From the sequence record SRR22947727_1342: a DNA stretch of 40,137 nucleotides; one strand, written 5' to 3'. Below the pieces are notes generated by a model, which was given only the letters and a program-made list of their open reading frames with translations, did no database searches and was not told where the DNA came from. Positions 14,261 to 28,464 of the stretch are shown piece after piece. Position 1 is the stretch's first letter. Each line of letters starts with the position of its first letter. Made by a program: the position numbers and the translations under genes.

Positions 14261-14298
14261 CGCTCCGCGCCAGACTCTTTATCACCCCTTGATTTGGT

Positions 14299-15213
14299 TT
14301 GTTGAACGCTCCGTTTGAACTGGTAACAAGCCTTGGGTTTGCGGCTTTTGTTCTTCTGTTGATTGCCCTGCCGATTGCGTTCTGGTCGGTATCCAGCGAC
14401 TCCAGGCCTGGTGTTGTTCGCTTGTTGGTTGCGGTCGCGAACCTTTTGCTCACGGCTCAACTTGTACTCCGCTGGTGGCAGTCGGGTCATTTCCCCATCA
14501 GCAACTTGTACGAATCGCTCTGTTTCCTTGCCTGGGCATGCACCCTCACGCAGTTGGTTGTTGAGCGTGCATGGCCATCACCCATTGTTGCTGCTGCCGC
14601 CACTCCGATGGGATTGGGCTGCATCGCATTTGCGAGCTTTGCACTACCGGATCAATTGCAGTCGGCTGCCCCATTGGTGCCTGCTTTGCGCTCCAGTTGG
14701 TTGGTCATGCATGTGAGCGTGATCATGGTGAGCTATGCCGCATTGTTAGTGGGTTCGTTGCTGTCCTTGGCGGTCTTGGTGATGGATCGAGGCGAAGCCT
14801 TGCAGCTTCGAAGTAGTTCGATTGGAAGCGGTGGATTTCGCCAAGCAGTCACAACTCCTGATTCAGGCTTCTTACAACTTCAATCTCTCGAGATCAGTAC
14901 AAATGAGCAGCTAGATAGCCTTAGTTATCGCACAATAACGGTTGGATTTCTAATGCTTACTGTTGGAATTATTAGTGGGGCTGTTTGGGCAAATGAAGCC
15001 TGGGGTAGTTATTGGAGTTGGGATCCCAAGGAAACTTGGGCTTTGATTTGTTGGTTGGTCTATGCCGCTTATTTGCATACGCGACTGAGTCGAGGTTGGC
15101 AGGGTCGTCGCCCTGCTTTTGTCGCTGTCATCGGTCTTGTTGTGATTGCCGTTTGCTATATCGGTGTGAATCTTTTGGGTATTGGATTGCATAGTTATGG
15201 TTGGTTTTTCTAG
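14299..15213 (+). CDS. ccsB: Cytochrome c biogenesis protein CcsB (cyanobacterial CcsA/Ycf5)
   Basis: [36 protein letters not shown] (WWD motif), GLHSYG. Confidence 0.95.
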
Positions 15214-15423
15214 ATACATGAAAACCTAAGAAAGATATAAAAAAGATATCTTAAGAATCATCAGCAGGTAGTAATCGTGCCCTTTTGCTTAGTATGGTCT
15301 CAAAGGCTACCTACACTTTTAGTAGGATTTATCACAAGTGTAGTTAAATATGAATTATTTCTAGATAATTCCCACCCGTTTGACAATCGTTTATAGTTTA
15401 AGATAGGTAATAATCGTCAATAA

Positions 15424-16206
15424 ATGACTTCGATGAGTGGTAGTGCCTTAGATGCTGCAATTTGGTCATTGGTAGCAATGGTTCCAGTCGTAATCTCTGC
15501 CTGGTTTGGACTGAAATTCCAACCATCAAAAAAATTAACTGGTTATTTCCTTGCGTTTAGCTCCGGAATGCTCATAGCATTGCTTTCGTACGACTTGGTT
15601 GAAGAGGCATTCCGAATATCTGGCCCCTATTATGCTATGTTCGGGTTGTTTTTAGGTCTAATCGCTTATCAAGTATCCAATTACTTGGTAGCTAAATTTG
15701 GTGTGAAACGTCGTCAATCTGTAAATTGTGGAGGTATTGGTCATTTAAGTATAGAACAACAACAAGAACGAACTACTGCAATTGCGTTACTGATTGGAGC
15801 GGCATTGGATGGCATCCCTGAATCAATGAGCATTGGGATTACCTTTTTAGAGAACCCACTCGTAAGCAGTTCCGTTGTTCTTGCTGTTGCAGTGGGAAAT
15901 ATTCCAGAGGGTCTTGCAAGTGGTGCTGGGCTTAAACGAAGTGGTGTATCCCGCACTAATATTTTACTGTTGTGGTCTTCTGTTGTCATTGTATGCGTCG
16001 TATCGTCAGTGCTTGCCTGGTTGCTGATGAAGGAAGCACCCGATGCAATGAAGGGCCTAATTACTGCTTTTGCAGGAGGAGGTGTGCTGGCAATGACATT
16101 TCAAGCCATTATTCCTGAAGCCTATGAAGAAATTAAAGATTGGATTGGTCTCATTGCAGGAGTTGGTTTTGCCATTGCTTTTCTTGTATCACACCTGATG
16201 CACTGA
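15424..16206 (+). CDS. ZIP family (ZupT/GufA-like) metal transporter
   Basis: About eight TM helices; LAFSSGMLI, LDGIPES, GNIPEG, FAGGGVL...IIPEA. Confidence 0.85.
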   Translation: MTSMSGSALDAAIWSLVAMVPVVISAWFGLKFQPSKKLTGYFLAFSSGMLIALLSYDLVEEAFRISGPYYAMFGLFLGLIAYQVSNYLVAKFGVKRRQSVNCGGIGHLSIEQQQERTTAIALLIGAALDGIPESMSIGITFLENPLVSSSVVLAVAVGNIPEGLASGAGLKRSGVSRTNILLLWSSVVIVCVVSSVLAWLLMKEAPDAMKGLITAFAGGGVLAMTFQAIIPEAYEEIKDWIGLIAGVGFAIAFLVSHLMH

Positions 16207-16355
16207 TTCATTCGTCTGACTATATATAGCTGTCGGCAGACACAACCTTCCAATTGCGATCTTCTGAATTTCATAATGATTCAACTCCCTCCGTTTGCTA
16301 TAAAAGGAAAAAGAAGCTTTGAAGGCTTCTCTTTAGTAAAATCGATGTATCAAGG

Positions 16356-18521
16356 ATGACAACTGCACCGGTTCTAAATGATCACTCGTTGAAGAGAAGC
16401 CCCCTAGAACCCAGTGGTAAGACATTTCGCTTATACCAGGGCTCACCGCACCCTTTTGGAAGTACTGCAGAGAGCGGAGGTGTTAATTTTTCTCTTTATA
16501 GCTCTAGTGCAACAAATGTTACGCTCCTGATTTTCGATAAACCAGATGATCTTAACCCGTTAGTTGAGATTAATCTGGATAACACAAACAATAGAAGTTT
16601 TAATATCTGGCATGTTTTTGTTGAGGGTGTAAAGCCAGGGATGGGATATGCCTATCGTGTGGATGGTCCTCATGAACCCTGGAATGGTCATCGCTTTGAC
16701 CCAGAGAAGGTTTTAGTCGATCCTTATTCAAAAGGGAATTGTTTCAAGCTATGGGATCGTGGAGCTGCTTGTGTTCCAGGCGATAACCTGCACAAATCCC
16801 TTCGTAGCGTTGTTATTGATGTTGATGATTATGACTGGGAGGGTGACCAGCCACTGAAAGTACCAATGGCTGAAACAATTGTCTATGAGATGCATGTTGG
16901 TGGATTTACGAAAAGTCCGACGAGTAATGTTGAAAATCCCGGAACGTATTTAGGACTCATTGAAAAGATCCCTTATCTTAAGAGCTTAGGCATAACAGCA
17001 GTTGAGTTGCTACCAGTTTTTAGTTTTGATCACACTGACATATTCAAAGAATTTGAAGGTCGAAAACTTAAGAATTATTGGGGATATAGCACGATGGGAT
17101 ATTTTGCGCCGCACCAGGATTACTGCATTAATGATGAAATAACAGAACATTTAAATGAATTTCGAGATATGGTTAAGGCTTTGCACAAGGCAGGAATTGA
17201 AGTAATTTTAGACGTTGTTTACAATCATACTGATGAAGGTAATCATCAAGGCCCAATGTTTAGCTTTAAAGGAATTGATAATTCATCATATTATTATTTA
17301 ACTGGAGCTGATGGTAACAAAGATTTTTATTATGACTACACTGGATGCGGCAATACCTTTAACTGTAATCATCCTGTCGGCGAAAAACTGATTATTGATT
17401 CACTTCGTTTCTGGGTTAAGGAAATGCATGTGGATGGTTTCCGATTTGATGAAGGTTCTGTTCTCAGCCGAGGAGAAGATGGCACTCCATTAGAACATCC
17501 ACCTGTTATCTGGTCGATTGAACTAGATGATCTTTTAGGACAAGCCAAGGTGATTGCCGAAGCTTGGGATGCTGCTGGTCTTTATCAGATTGGTACGTTT
17601 CCAGGTGCACGTTGGGCTGAATGGAATGGTAAGTATAGGGATTGCATCAGGGGTTTTGTAAAAGGAGACCCAGGACTACTTGGAGAGGTAGCAGGTCGTC
17701 TAACTGGAAGTGCAGATCTTTATCAATATCGACATCATGAACCCACCAATAGTGTGAATTTTGTTTGTGCCCATGATGGTTTTACATTGTATGATTTAAC
17801 GGCATACAATGAAAAACATAATTGGGCTAATGGTGAAGGTAGTAATGATGGTATTGATGATAATGTGAGCTGGAACTGTGGTGTCGAAGGTGAAACTGAA
17901 GACTCCTGGATTAATGATTTAAGAAAAAGACAGGTTAAAAACTTTGCAGTTACACACATGCTTTCAATGGGTGTACCTATGATTGTGGCAGGAGATGAAT
18001 TCATGCGCAGTCAAGGTGGTAACAATAATACTTACTGTCATGACAATGAAATCAATTGGTTTGATTGGAATAAAATTGCATCGAAGGATAGTCAAGAGAT
18101 GATCCGATTCTGGTCTCTCTTAATTGATAAACGTAAAAAGTATATTGACCACTTCAAGGGAAAGTATTTCTCAGGAGATTCTAATAAGTATGGTCTATCA
18201 GATATCTCATGGCATGGTACAAAGTTATACAGTCCTGGTTGGAATGATGCGCAGGGTCGATGTCTTGCAATGACTCTTGGTGATACTGCACAAGATAGTG
18301 ATCAAACCCTTAATATTCATGTCATGTTTAATATGTACTGGGAATCTGTGGAATTTGAAATACCACAAGTCAATGGTCTTAGGTGGTATCGAGCTATTGA
18401 TACCTCACTTCCTTCACCCAGCGACATTGCTCCGTTTGAAGACCAAGTAACTATTGATGATACTAACTATACCCTTACTTCTAGAAGTATTGTTGTTCTT
18501 GCTTCGAGGGCTGTTACTTAA
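16356..18521 (+). CDS. glgX: Glycogen-debranching enzyme/isoamylase (CBM48 + GH13)
   Basis: GVNFSLYS, YEMHVGGFT, LGITAVELLPV, NYWGYS, DVVYNHT. Catalytic residues in GFRFD(E), IAEAWD and FVCAHDGF. Also SQGGNNNTYC. Confidence 0.93.
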   Translation: MTTAPVLNDHSLKRSPLEPSGKTFRLYQGSPHPFGSTAESGGVNFSLYSSSATNVTLLIFDKPDDLNPLVEINLDNTNNRSFNIWHVFVEGVKPGMGYAYRVDGPHEPWNGHRFDPEKVLVDPYSKGNCFKLWDRGAACVPGDNLHKSLRSVVIDVDDYDWEGDQPLKVPMAETIVYEMHVGGFTKSPTSNVENPGTYLGLIEKIPYLKSLGITAVELLPVFSFDHTDIFKEFEGRKLKNYWGYSTMGYFAPHQDYCINDEITEHLNEFRDMVKALHKAGIEVILDVVYNHTDEGNHQGPMFSFKGIDNSSYYYLTGADGNKDFYYDYTGCGNTFNCNHPVGEKLIIDSLRFWVKEMHVDGFRFDEGSVLSRGEDGTPLEHPPVIWSIELDDLLGQAKVIAEAWDAAGLYQIGTFPGARWAEWNGKYRDCIRGFVKGDPGLLGEVAGRLTGSADLYQYRHHEPTNSVNFVCAHDGFTLYDLTAYNEKHNWANGEGSNDGIDDNVSWNCGVEGETEDSWINDLRKRQVKNFAVTHMLSMGVPMIVAGDEFMRSQGGNNNTYCHDNEINWFDWNKIASKDSQEMIRFWSLLIDKRKKYIDHFKGKYFSGDSNKYGLSDISWHGTKLYSPGWNDAQGRCLAMTLGDTAQDSDQTLNIHVMFNMYWESVEFEIPQVNGLRWYRAIDTSLPSPSDIAPFEDQVTIDDTNYTLTSRSIVVLASRAVT

Positions 18522-18566
18522 GTCTTCGTCATTTTCATTAATCCCCAAATTATCTTCTTAAATTTA

Positions 18567-20726
18567 ATGACCTCCTCTAATCAACTCGCTTTTCCATTCT
18601 CCGACTTAATTGCTGGATATATTCGCAAAGTCTCCTATCCTGATGCATTTGATTGCAAAGGGGAAATCGAACTTGAAACATCCGATGGCAGGATGTTTAC
18701 CGTTAAAATTACTGATGCCGCTTATGCTGAATTAGTACGTAATCTGGGTGAACCATTTCAAATGGCACCAGATTTGTCGCAGATTCTTGTTGAAGATCGT
18801 TTTATACATGTGTATGGTATTTTTTATCCAGAGTCAGACCGTCTTAAGTTTGAAGCAAAACATATGTTGCTTTTTGGTCGCTCTAAGGATGATCTAAGAT
18901 TCGAAGACCAAAACTGGTGGATTCATCAGGTTCAGCAATTATTGAATTTTTATCTGGAGGCTCAATTTAAGGTAGTTGAAGGCGAGAGTATTAACTTTAA
19001 GAATTTCCGAACCGATCTTAGTTCTGAAGGTAAAAAACAAGATGGTGTTCAGAATTTAGATACGATTTCACGACTTATTTATGGTTTTGCATCCGCTTAT
19101 ATGATGACGGGTGATGAACGAGCATTAGAGGCTGCGCAAAATGGTACTGAATACATGCAGCGTCACTTTAGACATCAAAATAAGAGTGAAGGTATTTGTT
19201 ATTGGTATAGCCAAATTGATATTCAGGATGATGGCAGCGTTCGTAAGTACATGGGTTCTACAGCTGGTGGAGATGAGGGAGGTAATGCTATTCCTTGTTA
19301 TGAGCAAATCTATGCTCTCGCTGGACCTACACAAACTTGGAGACTCGTTGGTGGAGAGGAAATCAAAACAGATATTGACGACACCATTTCATTCCTAAAT
19401 CGCTACTACAAAGACCATGGTCCTTACGGTGGATATTATTCACATGTGGATCCTGTTACCTTTGATGCAAAAGCTGAATCTCTTGGTGTAAACAAAGCCA
19501 AGAAAAACTGGAACTCTGTTGGAGATCATGCACCTGCATACTTAATTAATCTCTATCTTGCTACAGGAGATGATAATTATGCCAGATTTTTAGAGGATAC
19601 ATTTGACACTATTTGCGATCATTTCCCCGATTATGGTTATAGTCCTTTCATGAACGAAAAGTTCTTTGATGATTGGTCTCATGATTTGAAGTGGGGTATT
19701 CATCAAGCTCGTTGTGTTGTTGGTCATAACTTAAAGGTTGCTTGGAACCTTACAAGGATGCATAGTCTGATGCCAAAAGAAAGCTATAAAACATTTGCAC
19801 ATCAAATTGCTGATGCAATTCCAGGTGCAGGCTGTGACACACAACGTGGTGGCTGGTACGACATGATGGAACGGACACTAAAGGATGGTGAAGAAAATTA
19901 TCGCCGAGTCTGGCACGACAGAAAAGCATGGTGGCAGCAAGAACAAGGTATTCTTGCTTATTACATTATGGCTGGGGTTTACGATGATAAGCCTGAATAT
20001 CTAAGCTATGCGCGAGAAGGCTCTGCTTTCTATAATGGTTGGTTCCTTGACTATGAGGAAGGTGGGATTTACTTCAACGTTCTAGCCAATGGTCAACCCT
20101 ATTCACTTGGTAGTGAGAGAGGTAAAGGTAGTCATTCCATGGCTGGATATCATTCCTTTGAACTTTGCTTCCTGTCTGCAGTTTATACAAATCTACTAGT
20201 GAACAAGCAGCCTATGGATTTCTTCTTTAAACCCAGTCCTCATGCTTGGCCAGAGAACAAACTTCGTGTTGCACCAGATATCTTGCCAGAAGGTAGTATT
20301 GAACTCTCTGAAGTTTGGATAGACGATCAAATCCATACTGATTTTGACAAAAAGAATCTAATCGTTAATCTCCCGGATAGTGATAAGCCATTACGAGTGC
20401 GAGTTCGTATTGAGCCGGCCGGGCTTGGTTTCAGTGCTGATTTACTCAGCTATGAAGATGACATTGCGACTTTTGCTTTGGATGGTGATCTTACCCGTTG
20501 TAAACTCCCTCTATTTAAGAAAGAAGTTGAGAAGCTTAATGGTGCCAAAGCCATTGTTTTAGATATGACTAATCTTAAAACCGTTGATGATGTTGGTTGG
20601 AATTACTTGTTATTTACAAAACAGCAACGCGGTGCTGACTTCGGATTATCACTTAAAGGCCTTAATCCTGTAATCAGTCAATCCCTAAAAGATGCAGAGT
20701 TAGACGAGGAATTCAATGTAATGTAG
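18567..20726 (+). CDS. AGE-family (N-acylglucosamine 2-epimerase-like) epimerase/isomerase fused to a C-terminal STAS domain
   Basis: AGE-type motifs SRLIYGFA, VVGHNLK, RGGWYD, KAWWQQEQ, GYHSFE. Residues ~622-719 match STAS (ALDGDLT...IVLDMTNLKTVDDVG...LKGLNPVI). Confidence 0.8.
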   Translation: MTSSNQLAFPFSDLIAGYIRKVSYPDAFDCKGEIELETSDGRMFTVKITDAAYAELVRNLGEPFQMAPDLSQILVEDRFIHVYGIFYPESDRLKFEAKHMLLFGRSKDDLRFEDQNWWIHQVQQLLNFYLEAQFKVVEGESINFKNFRTDLSSEGKKQDGVQNLDTISRLIYGFASAYMMTGDERALEAAQNGTEYMQRHFRHQNKSEGICYWYSQIDIQDDGSVRKYMGSTAGGDEGGNAIPCYEQIYALAGPTQTWRLVGGEEIKTDIDDTISFLNRYYKDHGPYGGYYSHVDPVTFDAKAESLGVNKAKKNWNSVGDHAPAYLINLYLATGDDNYARFLEDTFDTICDHFPDYGYSPFMNEKFFDDWSHDLKWGIHQARCVVGHNLKVAWNLTRMHSLMPKESYKTFAHQIADAIPGAGCDTQRGGWYDMMERTLKDGEENYRRVWHDRKAWWQQEQGILAYYIMAGVYDDKPEYLSYAREGSAFYNGWFLDYEEGGIYFNVLANGQPYSLGSERGKGSHSMAGYHSFELCFLSAVYTNLLVNKQPMDFFFKPSPHAWPENKLRVAPDILPEGSIELSEVWIDDQIHTDFDKKNLIVNLPDSDKPLRVRVRIEPAGLGFSADLLSYEDDIATFALDGDLTRCKLPLFKKEVEKLNGAKAIVLDMTNLKTVDDVGWNYLLFTKQQRGADFGLSLKGLNPVISQSLKDAELDEEFNVM

Positions 20727-20759
20727 CTGTACAAAGTCTTATGAATTCAATTATACTTG

Positions 20760-20790
20760 AGGGTAAGCTGTAAGCATACCCTTTTTTTTT
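20760..20790 (+). terminator. Intrinsic terminator after the AGE-STAS gene
   Basis: AGGGTA-A-GC / GC-A-TACCCT hairpin with loop TGTAA, followed by a long T run. Confidence 0.65.
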
Positions 20791-20797
20791 ATTTGCT

Positions 20798-22204
20798 ATG
20801 AGCAGTCAATTTTTAGAGCTTAATCAAAAAGGCGTTAGAGCGGTAATGAGTGGAAGAATTTATGATGCAGAAGAGTTTTTCAGGGCAGCGATCAACCTCC
20901 AGTCCAACTCATTAGAAGCAGTCTTTAATTTGATAAAGCTATTTCATATGATCCATAGGTATCAGGATGCAATTCAATTATTTAAAGAAATTACGTATGA
21001 TCAACCTACAAAAGTTTTACCGCAACAAATCATAAATATTATTGGAGATTGTGCAGTTAAAGATAAGGATTTGAAGTCAGCCTGTGAGATCTTGGGTCTA
21101 TTACATGATTCTTTCCCTCACAATATTGAGACAACCTGTCAATTTTCAAATATACTGATTAAATCAGGTCAGCTTGGTAAAGCTAAATTTTTACTCGATC
21201 AAACTAATCTATTAATTCATAATAACCCGAGTGTCCTTACTCAGCTGGCTATTACAGAAAGTGAGCTTGGATACTATGATCGAGCTGAAGAGATTCACCT
21301 ACGACTTGTTAATACCCATCCAGATCATTTCTTAAGTAATTTTAATTATGCACTATTTTTGTCAACAATTGGTCGCTATGATGATGCCCTTAGATTTTAT
21401 AATCGCTGCCTCCAAATTGTGCCTGATGCTCCAGAAGCTCTAGCCGCTATTAAGAAGCTACCATCTAATGACACCTCATTATTGTCAGAGATTTATTATT
21501 TAATTGGAATTAATCTGTATGATGAGGCTATTGTCAAATTGCAATCAGCAAAAGCAAAAATTGATCCAATATATTATTGGGCTGCAATAAGTGACATTCC
21601 TGTAACTTCAGCAGCAATAATTGAAGATACTAGTTTGGTTTCCCCTTTCATTCAGATTGAAATCTTTGATTTGATTGATAATGTTGAGGAAAAAAGTATT
21701 GATCTAGCAAGACTCGAAGACCATGTTAAAAGTCAGGAAAGTTTAATATGGGATCGTGCAGGTAAGCCAACTCAATTTGGTAAGCAATCGCACGAAATTC
21801 TTAATGGCTCACAGGATCAGTGCATTCAAGATTTGAATCGTCGGCTATTAAAATATATTCACAATTATATGACCACTCGTCCATTTCTAGCTCAGATAGC
21901 AATCCAAAAAAATATTCAATATCGACTAAGTGGATGGGCAGTTTTACTGGCTAAGGGTGGTTACCAAAAAAGACATATTCATCCTGAGGCTATTGTGAGC
22001 GGTGTATTGTATATTAAACTATCAGATCAATGCCGGTCTGACGATCAAATCGAAGGAAATTTGTCGTTCCCTTCTAGTCAATGTAGTCGTATGATAACTC
22101 CAAAAGAAGGAATGGTTGTTCTATTCCCAAGTTATTTACCACACGAAACAATTCCATTGCAAGAAGATAGTGAACGAATTTGTATTGCCTTTAATTTAGT
22201 GTAA
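20798..22204 (+). CDS. TPR-repeat protein with a C-terminal putative 2OG-Fe(II) oxygenase domain (TIGR02466-like)
   Basis: Several TPR-like helical pairs (e.g. GRYDDALRFYNRCLQIVPDAPEA). C-terminal GWAV...HIHPEAIVSGVLY...VLFPSYLPHET...RICIAFN. Confidence 0.8.
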   Translation: MSSQFLELNQKGVRAVMSGRIYDAEEFFRAAINLQSNSLEAVFNLIKLFHMIHRYQDAIQLFKEITYDQPTKVLPQQIINIIGDCAVKDKDLKSACEILGLLHDSFPHNIETTCQFSNILIKSGQLGKAKFLLDQTNLLIHNNPSVLTQLAITESELGYYDRAEEIHLRLVNTHPDHFLSNFNYALFLSTIGRYDDALRFYNRCLQIVPDAPEALAAIKKLPSNDTSLLSEIYYLIGINLYDEAIVKLQSAKAKIDPIYYWAAISDIPVTSAAIIEDTSLVSPFIQIEIFDLIDNVEEKSIDLARLEDHVKSQESLIWDRAGKPTQFGKQSHEILNGSQDQCIQDLNRRLLKYIHNYMTTRPFLAQIAIQKNIQYRLSGWAVLLAKGGYQKRHIHPEAIVSGVLYIKLSDQCRSDDQIEGNLSFPSSQCSRMITPKEGMVVLFPSYLPHETIPLQEDSERICIAFNLV

Positions 22205-22210
22205 GTTGGC

Positions 22211-23854
22211 TTAACCAAATGGTTTTACTGAATAGCCGCCAAATACTATATCTACATAAAATCTATATTGTCCAGTATGTGTAGCCGTAAATTCGAGAGC
22301 AGGGGGATTTCCGTGAGAAGTTAACTGTCCAAATCTCTTCAAAGATCGTTTTGACGGATCAGAAGCATCTGGAATACTACCTGCAAAGTCATATCCATGA
22401 CTGTCTAGTTCATAGTCAGCGTAGACAAGAGCCCACTGTGATCTATTCGCTACATACTTATAGTTATAAGTTTGTCCAGCCGTGAGGTAGATAACACGCT
22501 CAAAGGATCCGGGGCTTAATGGATTCATTAAATTACAAGCTGCAGTTGGATTCCAGGCTTCCATCTCTTTCTTTTGATCAAATGAACCGACCAAAGACAT
22601 CTCAGTAATAGAGGTCACAGGGGTGAGTTCTCCTTTTCCTGATACTACATTAATACTTAGACGGTCGGTATTTGGGTCGAAGATGAATTCCAGTTCACTC
22701 TCCATATCTAACTCGAAACAGATATTAAGTTCATGCGGTTTGCCATGCCAGGTTATGCACTCTAAGGATTGAGATGCAACTCCATCACTTACATCAAGCC
22801 AACAGCCCAATCCAACAGTATCTAGAAAAAGCTCGCTATTAGTGGCAATATTAATAACATGAAAACCTGATTTAACCTTTGTAATCAGGGAAACTTTTGT
22901 TGAACCTTCTACAGACACCATCATGCGGTCGGGATCTGTTGGATCAAATTGATTCTCTTTAAAAATACTTCCTAATAATTGAAATGTATCGCGATTATTT
23001 AAATAAATTGGCTCTCTAATATTGTCATTGCTTTGAGCTGGTTTGACTGAAAAACTTGGATTAGGTGAATCAGGTGAATGAAGCCTAAATTGGTAAATTC
23101 CATCATCTAAGACCTTGATTGTACAACCGGAATGATGCGTTGTTCCATGACTACTCCCAAATCCAGTTCCTTGCACTAAAGTATTCGCACCATCATTTAA
23201 TGCCGAAAATCCCAAGTCTTCATCTTGGTTGGATGAAATAAGAAATTGGTATACACCATCAGCACGAAAATCAATACCGCCTTTTGTTGACAATGGCACA
23301 TCGATCGTCCATAAATCTTCTGTTACTTGTGAGAATTCACGACCTTTAAGGCGACAATCAAACTTTTCAAACATATTCAAATGATCCCAGGGAAAACCGT
23401 TTAGCTGATATGAATCAAAAGTATCTACATGATGAAGAGTATCTGCTCCAGCACTTGGCGTAAGACTAAGTTTCATGGTCGATGAGTCGAATTCAAACAA
23501 GATTGACTGGCTCATATCAACTGAGAAATTTATATTACGAGTCGACTGCCCATCAGCCGTTTCTATTAGGTCCCATACCCCGTTTGCTTTATTGGAAATG
23601 GATGTTTTTAAATAACGATATGGTGAATGATTAATCACTAATCTAATTGAATATTGTCCATTGACCTCTGGAAGTTGTGGACCATTCACAGGATGTGAAA
23701 TTTGCCAACGGGTCTCCGATAATCGAACCATTTCCAATGCTGAATCAAACGGATTCCATTTCCAACGTCTTCGGTGTACTGTTCCTAATAGACTAATTGA
23801 TTCTATATTGTTCGCCTCGATATGTTTTTTGCTGTAAGAGGGTAAATTAAACAC
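22211..23854 (-). CDS. Hypothetical protein with four ~130-aa X25/SusE-like putative alpha-glucan-binding repeats
   Basis: 547-aa ORF. Repeats start at aa 19, 148, 290 and 418 (SISLLGT, SYQLNGF, TFQLLGS, EMSLVGSF...WNP...M...YNYKYVAN). No signal peptide seen. The family call is from pattern recognition only. Confidence 0.55.
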   Translation of the reverse strand: MFNLPSYSKKHIEANNIESISLLGTVHRRRWKWNPFDSALEMVRLSETRWQISHPVNGPQLPEVNGQYSIRLVINHSPYRYLKTSISNKANGVWDLIETADGQSTRNINFSVDMSQSILFEFDSSTMKLSLTPSAGADTLHHVDTFDSYQLNGFPWDHLNMFEKFDCRLKGREFSQVTEDLWTIDVPLSTKGGIDFRADGVYQFLISSNQDEDLGFSALNDGANTLVQGTGFGSSHGTTHHSGCTIKVLDDGIYQFRLHSPDSPNPSFSVKPAQSNDNIREPIYLNNRDTFQLLGSIFKENQFDPTDPDRMMVSVEGSTKVSLITKVKSGFHVINIATNSELFLDTVGLGCWLDVSDGVASQSLECITWHGKPHELNICFELDMESELEFIFDPNTDRLSINVVSGKGELTPVTSITEMSLVGSFDQKKEMEAWNPTAACNLMNPLSPGSFERVIYLTAGQTYNYKYVANRSQWALVYADYELDSHGYDFAGSIPDASDPSKRSLKRFGQLTSHGNPPALEFTATHTGQYRFYVDIVFGGYSVKPFG

Positions 23855-24085
23855 TGCGTTTAAGGGCTGACTTATAGCTACTCTAAGCTAATCTTCGTAT
23901 TTATGTCTGGATAAATTAATCATATGTATATAATTTATTATTTTTTTGTTAACCCTTGCGACTACCGATCCCCCATTGTTTATAAAAAAAATAGGTAGGT
24001 GTTGTCATTTTTACTGTCACCACCGTTTGGCATGCCTATATTTAAATTACCTGAGTTGATGCTCAGTAACTATCGCTTCACTTCT

Positions 24086-24943
24086 ATGACTAAGAAAATT
24101 TTGGTGATGCTCTCCGAGTGGGGCTACTGGGGTGAGGAACTGATTGGTCCTCTCGATGTGCTTACGAAGGCCGGTTATACCCTCGATTTCATGACCGCGT
24201 TCGGCAGAAAACCGCCTGCTCTACCGCCCAGCATGGAAGAGGGCTATTTAGATCCACCACTTAACAAGGTAGTTACCGATGCTCATTTCGCGAAGCGAAC
24301 AACTGAAGTACATGAATCAAATCTTTTAAGTAATCCAATCAACCTCTCAGAGAAACTTTCTCTGATGCCTTATTTCAATGGTCAGAACTTTGGTTTAGAT
24401 CTAGCGGCTTTTCATGATAGAAGAGAGGAATTTTGGAAGGAGTTTGTAGACCCGTATGATGCCTTGCTTCTTCCAGGTGGAAGTGGACCAATGGTCGATA
24501 TGGTTAATAATGAAAGACTTCATAATCTTATTCTAGGTTACGTAAATCGTAACAAGCTTATAGCTGCTGAATGCTACTGTGTTACCTGTTTGGCATTCGC
24601 GCGTGAGTGGTCAGATCGAAAGAGTATTATTTGGGGAAAAAATGTAACTGGCCATGCTCGTGAATATGATTACAAAGAGGGCACTGGTTTTGCTCAAATG
24701 TATGGATATGACGGAGAACCTATGAACACAAGTGCCAATTTTGGTCCTCCTTTTTATCCCCTTGAGTATATTCTTAGAGATGCTACTGGACCTAGTGGCA
24801 AATATCATGGAGGTGTCGGTAAAAACATATCTACAATCCTGGATTATCCTTTCTTGACAGGAAGATCCACGCAGGACTCTGCACTGGTCGGTGAGCTTAT
24901 TCTCAAAGTGCTTGAGGAAGGTTTAACTCGCTACGGTTGGTAA
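24086..24943 (+). CDS. DJ-1/PfpI (type 1 glutamine amidotransferase-like) protein
   Basis: KKILVMLSEWGYWGEEL (conserved Glu), YDALLLPGGSG, IAAECYCV (nucleophile-elbow Cys), FLTGRS. Start moved to ATG 24086. Confidence 0.85.
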   Translation: MTKKILVMLSEWGYWGEELIGPLDVLTKAGYTLDFMTAFGRKPPALPPSMEEGYLDPPLNKVVTDAHFAKRTTEVHESNLLSNPINLSEKLSLMPYFNGQNFGLDLAAFHDRREEFWKEFVDPYDALLLPGGSGPMVDMVNNERLHNLILGYVNRNKLIAAECYCVTCLAFAREWSDRKSIIWGKNVTGHAREYDYKEGTGFAQMYGYDGEPMNTSANFGPPFYPLEYILRDATGPSGKYHGGVGKNISTILDYPFLTGRSTQDSALVGELILKVLEEGLTRYGW

Positions 24944-24968
24944 TTTAAACCATACAAATGGTGTCTTT

Positions 24969-26729
24969 ATGACACCATTTTCAATCATCACTACTTCACT
25001 GAAAATTATGAGAGGTCATGAGGCAATTCTGCGGCAGTTTCTTGCCAACGACCTAGACCATATGTTCGGAAATCCCGGGACTGTTGAACAGGGATTTCTT
25101 GATGCCTTGGCAGATGTTCCAGATATGAAATACATTCTCACACTACAAGAATCTATAGCTGTCTTGTGTGCGGATGGATATGCACGAGCACGACTAAAAC
25201 CTGCACTTGTACAGATTCATAGTTCTCCTGGATTAGGAAATGCTATTGGAAATTTATATCAGGCGATGCGTGGACAATCGCCCCTAGTCGTGATTGGCGG
25301 CGACGCCGGTATTAAATACCAGGCAATGGACGCTCAAATGGCTGCTGATTTAGTAGCAATGGCAGAGCCTGTCACTAAATGGTCTGCAATGGTTCAACAT
25401 CCATCCAGTCTTTTGAGAATGGTTAGACGTGCGATCAAGATTGCCGCAACTCCTCCCTGTGGCCCTGTATACCTATGTTTACCTGAAGATATTCTGGACG
25501 CAGAAATAACTGAAGAGATTTTCCCTGCCCATGTGCCCAGTTTGGCAACGAGACCTAGTGAGAATGATCTAAAGGAATTAGCCTCAGCGATTGAGCAGGC
25601 CAGCAATCCCATCATTCTTGTTGGAGATGGGGTGGCTTGGACCGGCGGAGTCGACCATGTGGTTGAGCTTGCGGAAACCATGGGAGCCAAGGTCTACTCA
25701 GCAGATGGAGGTGAGATTAACTTTCCCGATGATCACCTTCTTAACTACGGTAGTACTGGTCACATGTTCGGTGATGCAAGCCTACCTATCACAAAAGGTT
25801 GTGATCTCTGTATCACCCTTGGAGCCTACTTACTACCAGAAGTATTTCCCCATCTGGGAGACATTTTTGATCCGAAGGCGATTGTCATTCATGTTGATAC
25901 CGATGTCAATAATATTGCCAAGAATCATCGGGTTGACATTTCCTACGTCGCAGAACCTCACACCGTAATTGAGGGTTTGATGCCCCTTGTTAAGCAGTTG
26001 CCTCAGGATTGGCACAATGCTGCACAAGCGAGAAGACAACAGCTGCAAAGCGAATCCCCTGTGATCATTAATGACGTCGACGTCAATTATGAAGTTGTTC
26101 CAAAACACTCAAGCGAGGAGTATGACGGTAAGAAATTGTCAATGAAGTCGGGTTATTTTATCAAGACTCTTTCCGAAATGCTTCCCGATAACAAAATAAT
26201 ATTTGATGAAGCATTGACCAATTCCCCTCCAGTTAACAAATATCTGCCAGGGCGTGTACCAGGCGATCGAATGTTGACTCGTGGGGGGTCTTTGGGTACC
26301 GGTTTCCCCGGTGCCATCGGTGCAAAAATCGCATATCCTGATCGATGCGTTGTTGGTTTCTCCGGAGACGGTGGCAGTATGTATACAATCCAGTGCTTAT
26401 GGACAGCAGCAAGGCACAACGTCGGAGCCAAATTTGTGGTCTGCCAAAACAGGTCTTATAAGCTATTGCAGGCAAACATCAGTAAGTTCTGGGCTGAAAG
26501 AGGAATTGAAGGACGGGAGTTTCCGCTCCCATTTGATCTTTCCAAGCCCGAAATTTGCTTCAATGAAATTGCTCATAGCTTCGGTGTTGCTGGTGAAAGA
26601 GTTATTCGTCCTGATCAGGTGAAAGATGCGATTGCAAGAATGCTTGCCCATGACGGCCCTTATTTGATCAACCTTGTGCTAGACGGTTCGATTCGACCAG
26701 ATCACATTGGTGTTCATTGCGGACAATAG
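24969..26729 (+). CDS. Thiamine-diphosphate-dependent enzyme, benzoylformate decarboxylase-like
   Basis: FGNPGTVE, LQESIAV (catalytic Glu), IHSSPGLGNA, GGSLG, ThDP/Mg motif GDGGSMY...CQNRSY. Alternative start ATG 25008. Confidence 0.88.
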   Translation: MTPFSIITTSLKIMRGHEAILRQFLANDLDHMFGNPGTVEQGFLDALADVPDMKYILTLQESIAVLCADGYARARLKPALVQIHSSPGLGNAIGNLYQAMRGQSPLVVIGGDAGIKYQAMDAQMAADLVAMAEPVTKWSAMVQHPSSLLRMVRRAIKIAATPPCGPVYLCLPEDILDAEITEEIFPAHVPSLATRPSENDLKELASAIEQASNPIILVGDGVAWTGGVDHVVELAETMGAKVYSADGGEINFPDDHLLNYGSTGHMFGDASLPITKGCDLCITLGAYLLPEVFPHLGDIFDPKAIVIHVDTDVNNIAKNHRVDISYVAEPHTVIEGLMPLVKQLPQDWHNAAQARRQQLQSESPVIINDVDVNYEVVPKHSSEEYDGKKLSMKSGYFIKTLSEMLPDNKIIFDEALTNSPPVNKYLPGRVPGDRMLTRGGSLGTGFPGAIGAKIAYPDRCVVGFSGDGGSMYTIQCLWTAARHNVGAKFVVCQNRSYKLLQANISKFWAERGIEGREFPLPFDLSKPEICFNEIAHSFGVAGERVIRPDQVKDAIARMLAHDGPYLINLVLDGSIRPDHIGVHCGQ

Positions 26730-26811
26730 ATATGATTTTTCTAATACTATTCTTCTCATCTGGATAGAATCTATCCAATTACAACTTCTGAATTTTTTTA
26801 TCCTCTATAAA

Positions 26812-27237
26812 ATGTTTACACATCCCGAGATCTGGTCTTTTGCATCAAATTGGTATCGCTACCTAGATGTTCATGCTCCGCTTGATAGCTTTAGGCCTTT
26901 GCTCACTGATAATGTTCAGCTTGTTTTCCCAGAGGCAACAGTCACTGGCTTTGAGGGTTATTCCAGTTGGTACAACAATGTTATTAATATATTCTTTGAC
27001 GAACAGCATACGCTTAAGATTGCAGATATTGCCAACCAAACTGATGAATCATGTGAAGTTCATGTTGTTGTTAATTGGCATGCAAGTATTTGGAATGCAC
27101 CTGAAGCACGTAGTACTCGTTTGATGATGGATGCCGATCAAACTTGGGAGGTAATGCGAACTTCAAATGGACAACTTGCTGTTTCTAAATATATTGTTAA
27201 TTACATGACATACGAGCCTGGCTCTTGTAAGCTTTAA
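26812..27237 (+). CDS. SnoaL/NTF2-like fold protein
   Basis: 141 aa from ATG 26812. WYRYLDVH helix, FPEATVTGFEG..W, then beta strands VVVNWHA and ADQTWEV. The ORF-track extension from 26707 is unlikely. Confidence 0.7.
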   Translation: MFTHPEIWSFASNWYRYLDVHAPLDSFRPLLTDNVQLVFPEATVTGFEGYSSWYNNVINIFFDEQHTLKIADIANQTDESCEVHVVVNWHASIWNAPEARSTRLMMDADQTWEVMRTSNGQLAVSKYIVNYMTYEPGSCKL

Positions 27238-27282
27238 TTACTTTCATCATCACTTGCGCTTTTTTAGTCTTTACTTTTTATT

Positions 27283-27678
27283 ATGAAAAATGTTCCTCAC
27301 AGCAAGCTCGGTGATCTTTACCGGGCACACATTAATTTAATCCTTAAAAAGGATATTGATGGCCTTCTTTCCCAGTACGCAGATGATGCGCTATTGATTT
27401 CTAGTTTTGAAAAATCACCGAAATATTTTCGAGGAAGTAAAGAACTCGAAGTCCATTTTCAGGGTATTCTTGGTATCCAAGGCCTGGATACAGAAATTGC
27501 ATTTTGGGGAGAGACAGAAAACCCCACGACACTAATGATTGTTGAGGCTATAACTATGCAAACTCCTGATGGTGAAGCGAAGATGCGATTTGCTGATAGT
27601 TGGGTTCTCAATGAAGAGGGGCGTATACAGATTCACTTCGCTGGTATGACTCAGTATCCTGATGGTTCAATAGCCTGA
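27283..27678 (+). CDS. SnoaL/NTF2-like fold protein
   Basis: KDIDGLLSQYADDA...FRGSKEL...FADSWVLNEEGRIQIHF matches the SnoaL_2 pattern. Confidence 0.8.
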   Translation: MKNVPHSKLGDLYRAHINLILKKDIDGLLSQYADDALLISSFEKSPKYFRGSKELEVHFQGILGIQGLDTEIAFWGETENPTTLMIVEAITMQTPDGEAKMRFADSWVLNEEGRIQIHFAGMTQYPDGSIA

Positions 27679-27685
27679 GAATATT

Positions 27686-28099
27686 ATGCTTCAAATTATT
27701 TCACAATTAGCCCTCACCTGCAAAGATCAGAAAGTAACGGAGGATTGGTACGTTAGGAATTTCGGATTTCGTCGAGCTCGTGTCGCTACATTACCTGATG
27801 GAGCCCAGATTATATTTATAAAAATGGCTGATTCAAGTTTTTATCTAGAATTATTTGCTGCAGACAGCGAGAATCCGTTGCCTGATCCTATAAATGATGG
27901 TCCTTCATATCCGGCATTTAGGCATCTGGCTTTCAAGGTTGATGATGTTGACAAAAAGCTCTCTGAGATTAGTCCTTTGGAGATAACACTTGGACCACTA
28001 GACTTTGATGCCTTCATCCCAGGATGGCGAACAGCCTGGTTGAAGGATCCTGATGGCCGAATTATTGAAGTGAGTCAAGGCTTTGTGGACGAACTTTGA
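27686..28099 (+). CDS. VOC family (glyoxalase/bleomycin resistance) protein
   Basis: SQLAL...WYVRNFGF...LELF...FRHLAFKVDDVD...WLKDPDGRIIEV. The putative metal ligands are Q/E/H/E. Confidence 0.9.
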   Translation: MLQIISQLALTCKDQKVTEDWYVRNFGFRRARVATLPDGAQIIFIKMADSSFYLELFAADSENPLPDPINDGPSYPAFRHLAFKVDDVDKKLSEISPLEITLGPLDFDAFIPGWRTAWLKDPDGRIIEVSQGFVDEL

Positions 28100-28464
28100 T
28101 TTCCTTATTCTAAATTACATAACCTCAATTTTTACTCATGTCAGTCTTTTCATAACCATACGAATAAGCTGAATCCAAATCCAACACCGTTAAGGAACTC
28201 TGGAATCGCTAAAATTAATTGTCAGCTTCTCGTGAGTCGATTAGTTCCAAAAAACTTTAGCCCAACTTGGATCTTTAACAATAATCGCAATTGAGCCTAT
28301 AATTATGGTTTATTTTTGGTGATTAATCGACCGACAATTAAGGGTTTTTTTAATCTCTTCCAATATATAATAGAAAAAGATTATTTTTTGTTGTTCATAT
28401 TGGTTCCTTTGAAGCCGTTGGTGTTGTCATGATATGCCAGGGAATCTTAATCACTCCTTCTAGG

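Follow-up and report, generated by a model that had tools for sequence, protein, structure and literature searches.

The closest described system is the icfG operon of Synechocystis (slr1852-1862), for which a GlgX / AGE-like / STAS layout has already been published. In the available parts of PMC12329169 and PMC8670252, the cluster is listed as an AGE-like protein, a STAS protein, GlgX2, another STAS protein, a PP2C phosphatase, and a kinase; its regulatory proteins have been studied, and its enzymes have not. The older literature (Beuf 1994, Shi 1999, Gonzalez 2001) is cited in PMC12329169. In the accessible text of that paper, the kinase is an anti-SigC factor that phosphorylates the STAS proteins of the cluster, and glucose sensitivity at low carbon is reported for icfG mutants.

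The genes studied here are located in a window (i.e. the whole analyzed stretch of DNA, 40,137 nucleotides of record SRR22947727_1342) at positions 16356-28099. These nine accessory genes are a reduced, marine-cyanobacterial copy of a cluster common to several bacterial phyla. In that cluster, a spare GlgX and a sugar-epimerase-like protein (the icfG core) are joined to small enzymes of predicted carbonyl chemistry. The best explanation (probability roughly 60%) is that the whole represents a single picocyanobacterial version, streamlined and acquired horizontally, of a two-module cluster that is widely conserved, and it is highly probable that the genes form one functionally linked system of the icfG type. 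Module A consists of the additional GlgX paralogue together with the AGE-fold sugar isomerase/epimerase and its STAS domain, and represents the enzymatic core of the icfG-type carbon-regulation cluster. In the window it is without kinase and phosphatase genes, with the STAS domain fused to AGE and with Asp in place of the phospho-serine. Module B comprises a ThiJ-like cysteine enzyme, a benzoylformate-decarboxylase (BFDC)-like ThDP enzyme, a pair of NTF2-fold proteins, and a VOC protein.

Gene content and genomic setting

All nine ORFs were confirmed (Table 1). The nine consecutive accessory genes with named domains of the original prediction are thus real, and their domain matches were borne out. 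Three of its start codons were wrong; homologues favor the shorter ThiJ-like, ThDP, and ORF7 proteins. The analysis shows the gene content, the folds, conserved catalytic-type residues, and the cross-phylum linkage.

Table 1. Positions of the cluster genes and of the fused STAS domain in the window.
Feature	Length (aa)	Position	Strand	Basis
GlgX-type accessory glycogen debranching enzyme	721	16356..18521	+	TIGR02100, Pfam domains
AGE-fold sugar epimerase/isomerase-like protein with C-terminal STAS	719	18567..20726	+	PF07221, AlphaFold2/Foldseek
STAS domain of the fusion (ca. residues 622-719)		20430..20726	+	profile match to SpoIIAA
TPR repeats with C-terminal 2OG-Fe(II) oxygenase domain	468	20798..22204	+	PF13759
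Multi-domain protein with X25/CBM-like putative alpha-glucan-binding modules	547	22211..23854	-	X25 matches in relatives
ThiJ-like DJ-1/PfpI-superfamily protein	285	24086..24943 (ORF opens 23999)	+	PF17124
BFDC-like ThDP enzyme	573	25008..26729 (ORF opens 24969)	+	three TPP domains
NTF2-fold protein (ORF7), dehydratase-like type	141	26812..27237 (ORF opens 26707)	+	AlphaFold2/Foldseek
SnoaL_2/NTF2-like protein	131	27283..27678	+	PF12680, sub-threshold
VOC (glyoxalase/bleomycin-resistance/dioxygenase) superfamily protein	137	27686..28099	+	PF00903

The nine genes sit in a stretch of ca. 40% GC beside a flank of 53% GC. This low-GC island also carries unrelated ion-transport genes. A scan for promoters and terminators gave no signal above chance level. 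In 13 DNA runs of marine, estuary, or seawater origin, taken from 9 studies, 0.86-0.90 of the sampled words of the stretch were present. Contigs assembled from RNA libraries (2 studies) map onto genes of both modules, transcription not being proven by such contigs.

Linkage was surveyed in the best 80 of 329 ThiJ-like loci of reference genomes, every locus having been picked through ThiJ.

The GlgX and AGE-STAS proteins

GlgX scored 708 bits against the TIGR02100 equivalog model (cut-off 640.9) and had the complete architecture (CBM48, GH13 alpha-amylase, and isoamylase C-terminal domains, all above their Pfam cut-offs), which substantiates the earlier GlgX/isoamylase call. Because related genomes hold 2-4 full-length GlgX copies each, the gene of the cluster is an extra paralogue.

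The second protein had been called an AGE-family enzyme with a STAS domain, and both parts of that call held. It scored 41.6 bits against the Pfam family GlcNAc_2-epim (PF07221; cut-off 23.4) and has 4493 relatives; as a single sequence it found no match among PDB chains with phmmer. Its AlphaFold2 model (pLDDT 82, pTM 0.83) features an N-terminal beta domain (ca. residues 14-102) and an (alpha/alpha)6 barrel (ca. residues 117-545). The best Foldseek matches were cellobiose 2-epimerase 3wkf (E = 6e-16), glucose 2-epimerase 8h1n, and mannose isomerase 5x32, with TM-scores of 0.75-0.81 relative to the target for enzymes of these three types; over the AGE superfamily structures the TM-scores of the barrel were 0.72-0.81, again relative to the target. 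About 200 columns of the barrel are invariant, and several of these are His. AGE enzymes use a pair of catalytic His residues, one of them in a GHxxE motif, together with the Glu of this motif. The invariant GH(387)NLK aligns with GHAIE of 8bry, with the His kept and the Glu replaced by Lys. The second catalytic His is probably that of the invariant YH529, which was picked by conservation. Because GHNLK replaces GHxxE, catalysis may differ or be lost.

A profile of the fused STAS domain, built from 58 homologues, matched SpoIIAA (1auz, E = 3e-4); the window domain alone fell below the Pfam cut-off (17.7 bits vs. 22.6). Its motif, VDDVGW, places an Asp at the column of the phosphorylatable Ser, where a Ser-site motif would read DSSG or SSAGL. 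Among the fused homologues this column holds Ser or Thr in 24, Asp or Glu in 22, and other residues in 12 of 58. The standalone STAS proteins of the clusters have M[S/A]SAGL in 12 of 12 cases, i.e. the Ser is kept.

These features bear on the idea that the AGE barrel is mainly a sugar-binding sensor, whose STAS domain would signal the products of glucan breakdown to a cascade of partner switching (anti-sigma kinase, PP2C), the neighboring enzymes being a regulon or incidental partners. The exchange of Glu for Lys in GHxxE would suit such a sensor, as would the STAS domain being fused to AGE or encoded directly after it in every version seen, and the anti-SigC kinase of Synechocystis that, in the available text of PMC12329169, acts on the STAS proteins of its cluster. 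However, the window and its picocyanobacterial relatives are devoid of the cluster kinase and PP2C and have Asp for the phospho-serine, yet the AGE barrel is highly conserved. Catalysis is compatible with a sensor role, and a sensor would leave unexplained why module B is co-located across ten or more gene orders. A mainly sensory role is regarded as quite improbable.

The ThiJ-like, ThDP, NTF2-fold, and VOC proteins

The assignment of the first module B protein to the DJ-1 superfamily is upheld by its score against ThiJ_like (PF17124; 82 bits, cut-off 30) and by a conserved nucleophile, the invariant C192, which in alignments falls on the nucleophile Cys of both 1u9c and 4p5p. Its PDB relatives are exclusively uncharacterized structural-genomics proteins. 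The protein is 65-80% identical between phyla, and 2300 proteins match it at E <= 0.001. The elbow motif is E-C-Y-C, with Tyr after the Cys, and is invariant in 12 of 12 sequences; the Glyoxalase III / Hsp31-PfpI type has a Cys-His dyad at this elbow.

For the ThDP enzyme, the earlier BFDC-like designation was retained: it has three TPP domains, and its nearest relatives and best PDB matches are BFDCs (E = 1e-58). It scored below the cut-off of the BFDC equivalog NF005485 (298 bits vs. 493). GNPGT (with Thr for Ser), LQE, IHS, and FPDDH align with the active-site motifs of BFDC chain 6a50; the BFDC active-site residues are Ser26, Glu47, His70, and His281.

Two SnoaL proteins had also been predicted. 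ORF7 matched no family in Pfam or NCBIfam; its AlphaFold2 model (pLDDT 89) resembled 3b8l, scytalone-dehydratase-like 3ef8, and LinA 3s5c in Foldseek (TM 0.7-0.8 relative to the target), and it occurs in 48 of the best 80 loci. The 131-aa protein, found in 30 of these 80, scored 22.3 bits against SnoaL_2 (PF12680; cut-off 27), a threshold that its homologue at locus L030 passes (39.5 bits); it has weak profile matches to MonB and ketosteroid isomerase and is 62-90% identical across phyla. The prediction therefore stands for the NTF2-like fold of ORF7, as modeled, and fails for a Pfam SnoaL-type domain above the cut-off in either protein.

The VOC superfamily call was correct (PF00903, 36.5 bits; cut-off 20.6). 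The protein fell far below the cut-offs of all NCBIfam glyoxalase I and methylmalonyl-CoA epimerase models. Its gene is present in 24 of the best 80 loci.

The TPR-2OG oxygenase and the 547-aa protein

These two proteins are additions specific to picocyanobacteria. The former was rightly named a TPR/2OG oxygenase: 2OG-FeII_Oxy_5 (PF13759) is matched with 75.6 bits, and several TPR families are matched as well. Its gene is present in 13 of the best 80 of 329 loci (12 picocyanobacterial, one with a doubtful label), and that of the 547-aa protein in 17. The latter had been described as a four-repeat, putatively glucan-binding protein. Comparing it with itself by BLAST disclosed no internal repeat, and the four repeats were not borne out. 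The guess of glucan binding gained support. The window protein itself is below the cut-off for the X25 pullulanase domain (21.6 bits vs. 27). Of 17 family members, 10 match X25_BaPul_like at E <= 0.01 (best 4e-9), and one matches CBM_20; look-alikes in the ESM Atlas bear X25, SusE/F, and CBM48. The protein has no signal peptide, and its N-terminus is not hydrophobic.

Linkage across genomes

Around ThiJ, the ThDP gene was found in 69 of the best 80 of 329 loci, adjacent to ThiJ in most, and a GMC oxidoreductase in 33. GlgX or AGE was located within 10 kb of ThiJ in 34 of the 80, and both in 22. The loci surveyed came from picocyanobacteria, other cyanobacteria, Actinomycetota, and Desulfobulbales, and linkage is kept, across at least ten gene orders, in Cyanobacteriota, Chloroflexota, Actinomycetota, and Desulfobulbales. 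Taxon groups were assigned from record titles, some of which look wrong; two loci labeled Pseudanabaena and Pimelobacter (L014 and L015) match the Synechococcus UW140 loci. Partner genes in other phyla include a GMC oxidoreductase, a second DJ-1, a Mo aldehyde oxidase, EthD, and a LarA-N-like gene; they fit the carbonyl theme and prove nothing.

Neither GlgX nor AGE was in the fetched DNA of 46 loci, and whole genomes were searched for 25 of them. AGE was found no more than 5 kb past the fetched flank in 15 of these 25, and five of those 15 loci had the order DJ-1, VOC, AGE, STAS, GlgX, (STAS), then PP2C. In two further genomes (L020 and L022) AGE was 26 and 51 kb from ThiJ, and in four it was on a different contig. 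No AGE gene turned up for L012, L018, and L040, whose genomes are possibly incomplete MAGs.

Of 301 cyanobacterial genomes, 9 had ThiJ and 26 had AGE, with an overlap of 8 genomes (Fisher p = 8.7e-9; neither this test nor the counts are phylogenetically independent, given that every locus was selected via ThiJ and that the genomes are related). The two genes lie within 12 kb on one contig in five of the eight. Module A is often alone, i.e. 18 of the 26 AGE-bearing cyanobacterial genomes are without a ThiJ match. The AGE-only cyanobacterial loci had the order DJ-1-like, AGE, STAS, GlgX in 8 of 8 cases, and a second STAS and PP2C in most.

The AGE and GlgX trees split congruently into a fused-STAS and a split-STAS lineage. 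A single clade of picocyanobacterial ThDP enzymes (21 rows, SH-aLRT 100) goes with both of these deep AGE/GlgX lineages; hence the modules have been joined on more than one occasion. The co-occurrence check that had been proposed (AGE, DJ-1, ThDP, SnoaL, and VOC with glgX/STAS across distant phyla) was run and passed, and the two halves thus belong to one conserved system.

Were the genes chance neighbors, i.e. unrelated genomic-island cargo with no shared function, the ion-transport genes on the island and the chance-level promoter/terminator scan would be as expected. That reading is contradicted by linkage that recurs in four phyla, in at least ten gene orders, and in both AGE/GlgX lineages of the trees, and by a phyletic overlap of 8/9 against a background of 26/301. 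It was rejected as extremely improbable.

Proposed route and alternatives

In the favored two-module reading, the accessory GlgX, aided by the cytoplasmic X25-type glucan-binding protein, would free short malto-oligosaccharides from glycogen. The AGE enzyme would act at C2 of the reducing-end glucose by aldose-ketose isomerization or epimerization. Module B would act on the C1-C2 carbonyl species that result (a 2-oxoaldehyde or a 2-oxo acid), rearranging them as a glyoxalase does, decarboxylating or ligating them with the help of ThDP, and dehydrating them. From family chemistry we infer a dicarbonyl conversion of the glycogen-derived sugar; every substrate and the order of the steps, too, we infer. 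The specific chemical route is offered tentatively, at a rather low probability. It is doubtful that an undescribed, non-phosphorylative route, processing at C1-C2 the glucose units that a dedicated GlgX frees from glycogen, is the missing enzymatic output of the icfG partner-switch. Its steps would be isomerization or epimerization by AGE, an oxidation that yields a 2-oxoaldehyde or 2-oxo acid, rearrangement by ThiJ/VOC, decarboxylation by the ThDP enzyme, and dehydration by the NTF2 proteins; if true, it would explain the glucose sensitivity of icfG mutants. A GMC oxidoreductase, a small DJ-1, a standalone STAS, and PP2C, all found in fuller versions, are absent from the window. Given the missing GMC oxidoreductase, any oxidase-dependent route is incomplete in the window.

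Module B might instead detoxify methylglyoxal, glyoxal, and sugar dicarbonyls that rise as by-products of glycogen mobilization. It would then be kept beside glycogen-mobilizing genes for co-regulation, with no designed flow of carbon from the glucan. Glyoxalase III belongs to the DJ-1/PfpI family and glyoxalase I to the VOC family, which favors such protection. So do the DJ-1-like gene directly before AGE in 8 of 8 AGE-only cyanobacterial loci and the typical stress and detoxification families added in fuller clusters (second DJ-1, Mo aldehyde oxidase, NmrA-like reductase, CMD). However, the unusual conservation of ThiJ and the 131-aa NTF2-like protein (identities above) and the strict ThiJ-ThDP adjacency fit a dedicated substrate better, the VOC protein scores under the cut-off of every glyoxalase I model, and neither a BFDC-like decarboxylase nor up to ten NTF2/SnoaL paralogues per cluster are known to take part in detoxifying dicarbonyls. 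The glucose sensitivity of icfG mutants at low carbon, as reported in the available text of PMC12329169, would also agree with protection from carbonyl stress, which is considered plausible if rather unlikely.

The fuller clusters also invite the thought that a small sugar-derived natural product or signal (e.g. of the osone or pyranone type) is made from glycogen-derived glucose. Many SnoaL paralogues occur per cluster, and in some clusters an OprB porin with a lipoprotein-type SnoaL, or an MIP channel, might export a product. Enzymes often used for tailoring include NTF2/SnoaL-fold cyclases and dehydratases, EthD, GMC oxidases, and ThDP carboligases, and these enzyme types would serve such a purpose here. 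Yet there was no enzyme that makes a core scaffold (PKS, NRPS, terpene synthase, or sugar nucleotidyltransferase) in any annotated locus, a hydrophobic N-terminus was absent in 44 of 45 F9-family SnoaL paralogues examined, and the tie to a carbon-regulation switch suits primary metabolism better. Biosynthesis of this kind is deemed very unlikely.

Comparison with known systems

Fungi and algae convert glucan or glucose to dicarbonyl sugars by the anhydrofructose pathway and by pyranose 2-oxidase, via glucosone to cortalcerone. The idea held in common would be that sugar from a storage glucan is turned, unphosphorylated, into 2-keto sugars that are then dehydrated. The GMC oxidoreductases in 33 of the best 80 loci would be in keeping with it. 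By contrast, no homologue of alpha-1,4-glucan lyase or aldos-2-ulose dehydratase was seen, and the window itself has no GMC oxidase; the likeness is an analogy of chemistry only.

With AGE enzymes (cellobiose 2-epimerase, glucose 2-epimerase, mannose isomerase, YihS sulfoquinovose isomerase), the window protein shares the (alpha/alpha)6 barrel and a GH motif that aligns with the AGE of 8bry. It differs in its low identity (ca. 15%), an extra N-terminal beta domain, a further beta domain, the STAS fusion, and GHNLK for GHxxE. The ThiJ-like protein has the ThiJ_like and DJ-1_PfpI domains and the nucleophile-elbow Cys of glyoxalase III (DJ-1/Hsp31), but its Cys is followed by Tyr (ECYC), not His, and its 285 residues include long insertions. 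The VOC protein has the fold of glyoxalase I, yet is below all glyoxalase I cut-offs. The ThDP enzyme resembles BFDC (MdlC) of the Pseudomonas putida mandelate pathway in its three ThDP domains and its aligned GNPG(S/T), LQE, xHS, and FPxxH motifs; no mandelate racemase or dehydrogenase gene is nearby, and its fixed partner is the ThiJ-like protein.

With SpoIIAA/RsbV partner switching, the cluster shares a STAS domain that matches SpoIIAA by profile, and PP2C and RsbW-type kinase genes are present in fuller clusters. The STAS domain of the window is part of an enzyme-like protein, its phospho-serine is Asp, and no cluster kinase or phosphatase was found: tblastn of the window with standalone STAS and GAF-PP2C queries gave no match, and there were no HATPase or SpoIIE domains among the window ORFs scanned (small ORFs covered in part).

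The nearest system is the icfG operon. An icfG-type trio (adjacent AGE-like, STAS, and GlgX-paralogue genes) was found at 16356-20726, and the left half of the cluster is the icfG form without kinase and phosphatase, hence already known. The claim that no characterized pathway has this enzyme set accordingly gives way for the GlgX/AGE-like/STAS part. The cyanobacterial locus L086 (unknown, CMD, DJ-1, AGE, STAS, GlgX, STAS, PP2C, RsbW-type kinase) has the gene list and order published for slr1852-1862, as far as the available text gives them. Its AGE and GlgX are 53% and 44% identical to the window proteins. Relative to the operon, the window is without the second STAS, PP2C (IcfG), RsbW-type kinase (Slr1861), CMD, and small DJ-1, and its STAS domain is fused to AGE with Asp at the phospho-site; it adds the ThiJ-ThDP-NTF2-NTF2-VOC operon, the TPR-2OG oxygenase, and the X25 protein.

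Gene content and genomic setting

The nine consecutive genes claimed in the original prediction were confirmed by ORF listing and domain scans. Two parts are distinguished here: module A (GlgX and the AGE-STAS protein, AGE denoting a sugar epimerase-like fold) and module B (ThiJ-like, ThDP, ORF7, the 131-aa NTF2 protein, and VOC). Homologue lengths point to the shorter starts tabulated for ThiJ, ThDP, and ORF7.

Features of the window and of two comparison loci
Feature	Coordinates	Strand	Description
Low-GC island	15300-38600		Mosaic; 31-47% GC per 1-kb window vs. ~53% in left flank
Nine-gene cluster	16356-28099		Modules A and B with two further genes
GlgX			708 bits vs. TIGR02100 cut-off of 640.9 (domain scan)
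AGE-STAS			AGE-like, 719 aa, C-terminal STAS domain
TPR-2OG	20798-22204		TPR + 2OG-Fe(II) oxygenase
X25 protein		Opposite to rest of cluster	547 aa
ThiJ_like	24086 (candidate start)	plus	First of five-gene run
ThDP	25008 (candidate start)	plus	Three-domain; benzoylformate decarboxylase (BFDC) closest
ORF7	26812 (candidate start)	plus	141-176 aa; no family assigned in domain scans
131-aa NTF2 protein		plus	Weak SnoaL_2
VOC		plus	Last of five-gene run
365-aa ORF	28465-29562	minus	Convergent with and downstream of cluster; no Pfam/NCBIfam family
rpe	38711-39478		GC climbs back; right side of island
Locus L086, 707-aa gene	16964-19087		Follows kinase gene; weak LarA N-terminal (lactate racemase) domain
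Locus L062, ThiJ pair	10000-15000		Two inverted copies around a palindromic ORF set (family F4)

The left flank consists of core picocyanobacterial genes (e.g. bipA, lptF/G, and ccsA) and has a GC content of 53%, compared to 40% in the cluster stretch. In related picocyanobacterial loci, the GC content of the cluster was lower than that of the flanks in high-GC hosts and higher in two loci labelled Prochlorococcus; a departure in both directions fits horizontal acquisition. Among the best 80 of 329 loci, those closest to the window were labelled marine Synechococcus or Parasynechococcus (86-93% protein identity). Beyond the cluster, the island holds a ZIP transporter, an SDF symporter with an SBP_bac_3 protein, a two-pore-type ion channel, Mrp/Mnh-type antiporter subunits, and a Na/Ca exchanger. 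The 365-aa ORF has a 72%-identical copy at the matching position in one comparison locus only (L002). A tRNA scan of the window returned zero genes, and thus no tRNA-linked island border. Promoter-like sites (40 vs. 42.8 expected) and terminator-like sites (13 vs. 10.3 expected) in 15000-29800 did not inform the operon limits.

Linkage across genomes

A search of species-representative genomes with a ThiJ alignment gave 329 loci, of which the best 80 were taken with flanks of up to 10 kb. Genes in these loci were counted using tblastn together with a de novo clustering of every ORF.

Gene occurrence in the best 80 of 329 ThiJ loci
Gene	Loci (of 80)
ThDP	69
ORF7	48
GMC oxidoreductase	33
131-aa NTF2 protein	30
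AGE	29
GlgX	27
Small DJ-1	24
VOC	24
GlgX or AGE	34
GlgX and AGE	22

The 34 loci carrying GlgX, AGE, or both were divided among picocyanobacteria (13), other cyanobacteria (9), actinobacteria (9), Desulfobulbales (1), and doubtful labels (2). Five loci (L001, L005, L007, L014, and L015) were labelled Opitutales, “proteobacterium”, Verrucomicrobiales, Pseudanabaena, and Pimelobacter simplex, respectively, and their clusters share gene order and 71-98% protein identity with picocyanobacterial ones; these MAG contigs have probably been put in the wrong bin or mislabelled, and L014 and L015 were accordingly counted as picocyanobacteria.

Neither GlgX nor AGE was found within the fetched flanks (up to 10 kb) of the 27 Chloroflexota loci, which whole-genome searches showed to be an effect of flank length. 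From the 46 loci devoid of both genes, 25 genomes were searched whole. AGE was located no more than 5 kb past the fetched end in 15, on the same contig at 11-40 kb from the locus edge in three, and on another contig (or with a contig end cutting the cluster) in four; no match was found in the remaining three, all MAGs. Five extended loci read either DJ-1, VOC, AGE, STAS, GlgX, (STAS), GAF-PP2C or VOC, DJ-1, GlgX, AGE::STAS. In three Chloroflexota MAGs (G304, G312, and G320), in-frame stops break the AGE gene or it is spread over two ORFs, which may reflect pseudogenes or errors of long-read assembly. The inverted ThiJ pair of L062, a Chloroflexia contig with its AGE on another contig, may have arisen by inverted duplication or through faulty assembly.

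A phyletic test independent of synteny was also carried out. Of 301 sampled cyanobacterial genomes, nine had ThiJ, 26 had AGE, and eight had both (Fisher p = 8.7e-9, uncorrected for relatedness); module B in cyanobacteria is almost always accompanied by module A. The proposal that the genes form one system had come with a gene-neighbourhood test, and its outcome is supportive, as modules A and B were kept together in no fewer than ten distinct gene orders. The reading favoured initially, of two or three island modules with no relation to each other, was overturned by these comparative data, and chance juxtaposition is excluded for practical purposes.

Phylogenetic analysis

The AGE and GlgX trees show a congruent split. 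One deep clade has 17 GlgX rows, and in every one of their loci an AGE of ~606 aa is followed by a separate STAS gene. The other clade (26 rows) belongs to fused AGE::STAS loci, the fusion being seen in 22 and AGE lying outside the fetched DNA in four. In the ThDP tree, all picocyanobacteria form a single clade (21 rows, SH-aLRT 100) that includes partners of both AGE/GlgX lineages, so the modules were joined, or one of them was replaced, more than once. Such repetition favours selection on linkage over hitch-hiking on one island.

The AGE-STAS protein

In an AlphaFold2 model built from 58 homologues (pLDDT 82, pTM 0.83), a beta domain at the N-terminus is followed by an (alpha/alpha)6 barrel, another beta domain, and the STAS domain. 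The structures closest to the barrel were cellobiose 2-epimerase, glucose 2-epimerase, mannose isomerase, and YihS (E down to 6e-16; TM 0.72-0.81 relative to the target). The family profile matched SpoIIAA (E = 3e-4) and aligned the sequence GHNLK with GHAIE, the corresponding motif in an AGE enzyme. The fusion family numbers 4493 proteins at E <= 0.001 and, by source names, ranges over cyanobacteria, Pirellulales and other Planctomycetes, Opitutaceae, Electrothrix, and Rhodospirillaceae.

The window's fused STAS carries Asp at the phospho-site; a phosphorylatable Ser was present in 12/12 standalone STAS proteins of the clusters. Among the 58 fused homologues, this column holds S/T in 24, D/E in 22, and other residues in 12. 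The Asp may represent a phosphomimetic state or independence from phosphorylation, and the latter would fit with the absence of kinase and phosphatase genes. A purely sensory AGE-STAS, a reading that the STAS domain brings up, is judged improbable.

Other proteins of the cluster

The ORF7 model (pLDDT 89) is an NTF2-like cone with dehydratase-type members closest. A profile-profile comparison found no relation to the 131-aa NTF2 family (probability 0.3); the two proteins are therefore not close paralogues. The 547-aa protein, described earlier as having four repeats, yielded no internal repeat in self-BLAST at E <= 10. A signal peptide is absent, 10/17 members of its family matched the glucan-binding X25 domain of pullulanase, and its look-alikes in the ESM Atlas carried X25, SusE/F, or CBM48. 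The ThiJ-like protein is 65-80% identical from cyanobacteria through Mycobacterium and Chloroflexota, and its DJ-1-type nucleophile cysteine is retained within E-C-Y-C, an unusual motif. The ThDP enzyme fell under the BFDC equivalog cut-off in a profile scan; its retained motifs are those of the BFDC active site. The cluster GlgX is a second copy, and three related genomes had two, three, and four full-length GlgX genes.

The picocyanobacterial version of the cluster is streamlined. In that of the window, GMC oxidase, small DJ-1, standalone STAS, PP2C, EthD, and Mo aldehyde oxidase are all missing, and no kinase domain was found among the window ORFs scanned. The TPR-2OG oxygenase and the X25-type protein are lineage-specific additions (13/80 and 17/80 loci, respectively, of the best 80 of 329).

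Several variants were observed elsewhere. A MIP-family channel gene (family F27), absent from the window, adjoins the X25-protein gene in seven picocyanobacterial loci (L006, L010-L012, and L014-L016). In three cyanobacterial loci (L025, L027, and L030), an OprB-type carbohydrate porin lies between SnoaL genes; the SnoaL protein beside it has a signal- or lipoprotein-like N-terminus, and the other paralogues look cytoplasmic. In three Chloroflexota clusters (L050, L074, and L079), some SnoaL members of family F9, 430-435 aa long, have an N-terminal extension whose G-R...S-R-x-H motif resembles that of FHA domains; if so, the cluster would gain a phospho-threonine reader.

Occurrence and expression

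Thirteen DNA runs from nine studies contained 0.86-0.90 of the words sampled from a 10-kb segment of the cluster; their labels are seawater, marine, aquatic, or estuary metagenome, and one run is possibly the window's source. Because this version is common in marine and estuarine metagenomes, it may matter for the turnover of carbon stores in abundant ocean phototrophs. Four RNA-library runs (two studies) gave contigs on GlgX, AGE, the X25 gene, ThiJ, ThDP, ORF7, the 131-aa gene, and VOC; some were identical to the window, and two span the ORF7/131-aa junction. These contigs are consistent with both modules being expressed in the sea, and they cannot exclude DNA carry-over or show co-transcription. 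Contig cover of about 21072-22033, in the TPR-2OG gene, was zero in two RNA-library sets (X14 and X17) and near zero in the others (X15 and X16), a gap that proves nothing.

Proposed chemistry

The support for a mechanism consists of linkage and family chemistry. The recurring families all work at sugar C1-C2 or on small carbonyl compounds: AGE enzymes catalyze C2 epimerization or aldose-ketose isomerization; DJ-1, ThiJ, and VOC proteins, 2-oxoaldehyde rearrangement; BFDC-like ThDP enzymes, 2-oxo-acid decarboxylation or carboligation; and LarA-N-like proteins, 2-hydroxy-acid racemization. GMC oxidoreductases, Mo aldehyde oxidases, and NTF2-fold dehydratase-like proteins also recur in the clusters. 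The reading we prefer, with a probability of about one in four, is a route in which GlgX would free an oligosaccharide that would pass via AGE to carbonyl intermediates, with module B handling these. A protective, detoxifying role coupled to glycogen mobilization is rated only slightly lower; natural-product synthesis by these enzymes is less probable, as is the sensory reading of AGE-STAS.

Relation to the icfG cluster

The icfG cluster of Synechocystis (slr1852-slr1862) has been tied since the 1990s to the balance of glucose and inorganic-carbon metabolism. Recent work connects the kinase of the cluster to SigC, a sigma factor that limits growth (PMC12329169), and another paper places Slr1855, annotated as N-acetylglucosamine 2-epimerase, in operon slr1852-1862 (PMC8670252). 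Other papers give slr1852 and slr1854 as unknown and slr1853 as carboxymuconolactone decarboxylase (CMD). The M. smegmatis SigF regulon was considered as a precedent and rejected, as the GlgX, STAS, and epimerase genes listed for it lie at loci unrelated to each other (PMC4694148).

Fuller clusters than that of the window encode standalone STAS proteins and a GAF- or Cache-SpoIIE PP2C phosphatase. ThiJ had no match in 18 AGE-bearing genomes of the 301-genome cyanobacterial sample; all eight examined had, in this order, DJ-1-like, AGE, STAS, and GlgX genes, mostly then a second STAS and PP2C. One such AGE-only locus (L086) runs unknown, CMD, DJ-1/PfpI, AGE, STAS, GlgX, STAS, and continues with Cache-HAMP-PP2C, an RsbW-type kinase, and a LarA-N-like gene. 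The last, of 707 aa, adds a further 2-hydroxy-acid-type enzyme family to the neighbourhood.

Literature searches for the joined cluster or the whole enzyme set found no paper describing it. The label “undescribed” thus holds for the joined cluster, but its left half is icfG-type: L086 has the published icfG gene list in the published order, and AGE-only loci with this gene set identify module A as an icfG-type core that often stands alone. The enzymatic core of the icfG cluster is conserved far outside cyanobacteria, is recurrently joined to a fixed set of carbonyl-chemistry enzymes, and persists in marine picocyanobacteria with no kinase or phosphatase found in the cluster. Together, these properties make the enzymatic side of the icfG cluster (AGE-like, GlgX2, and DJ-1-like proteins) open to testable enzymology with named candidate substrates.
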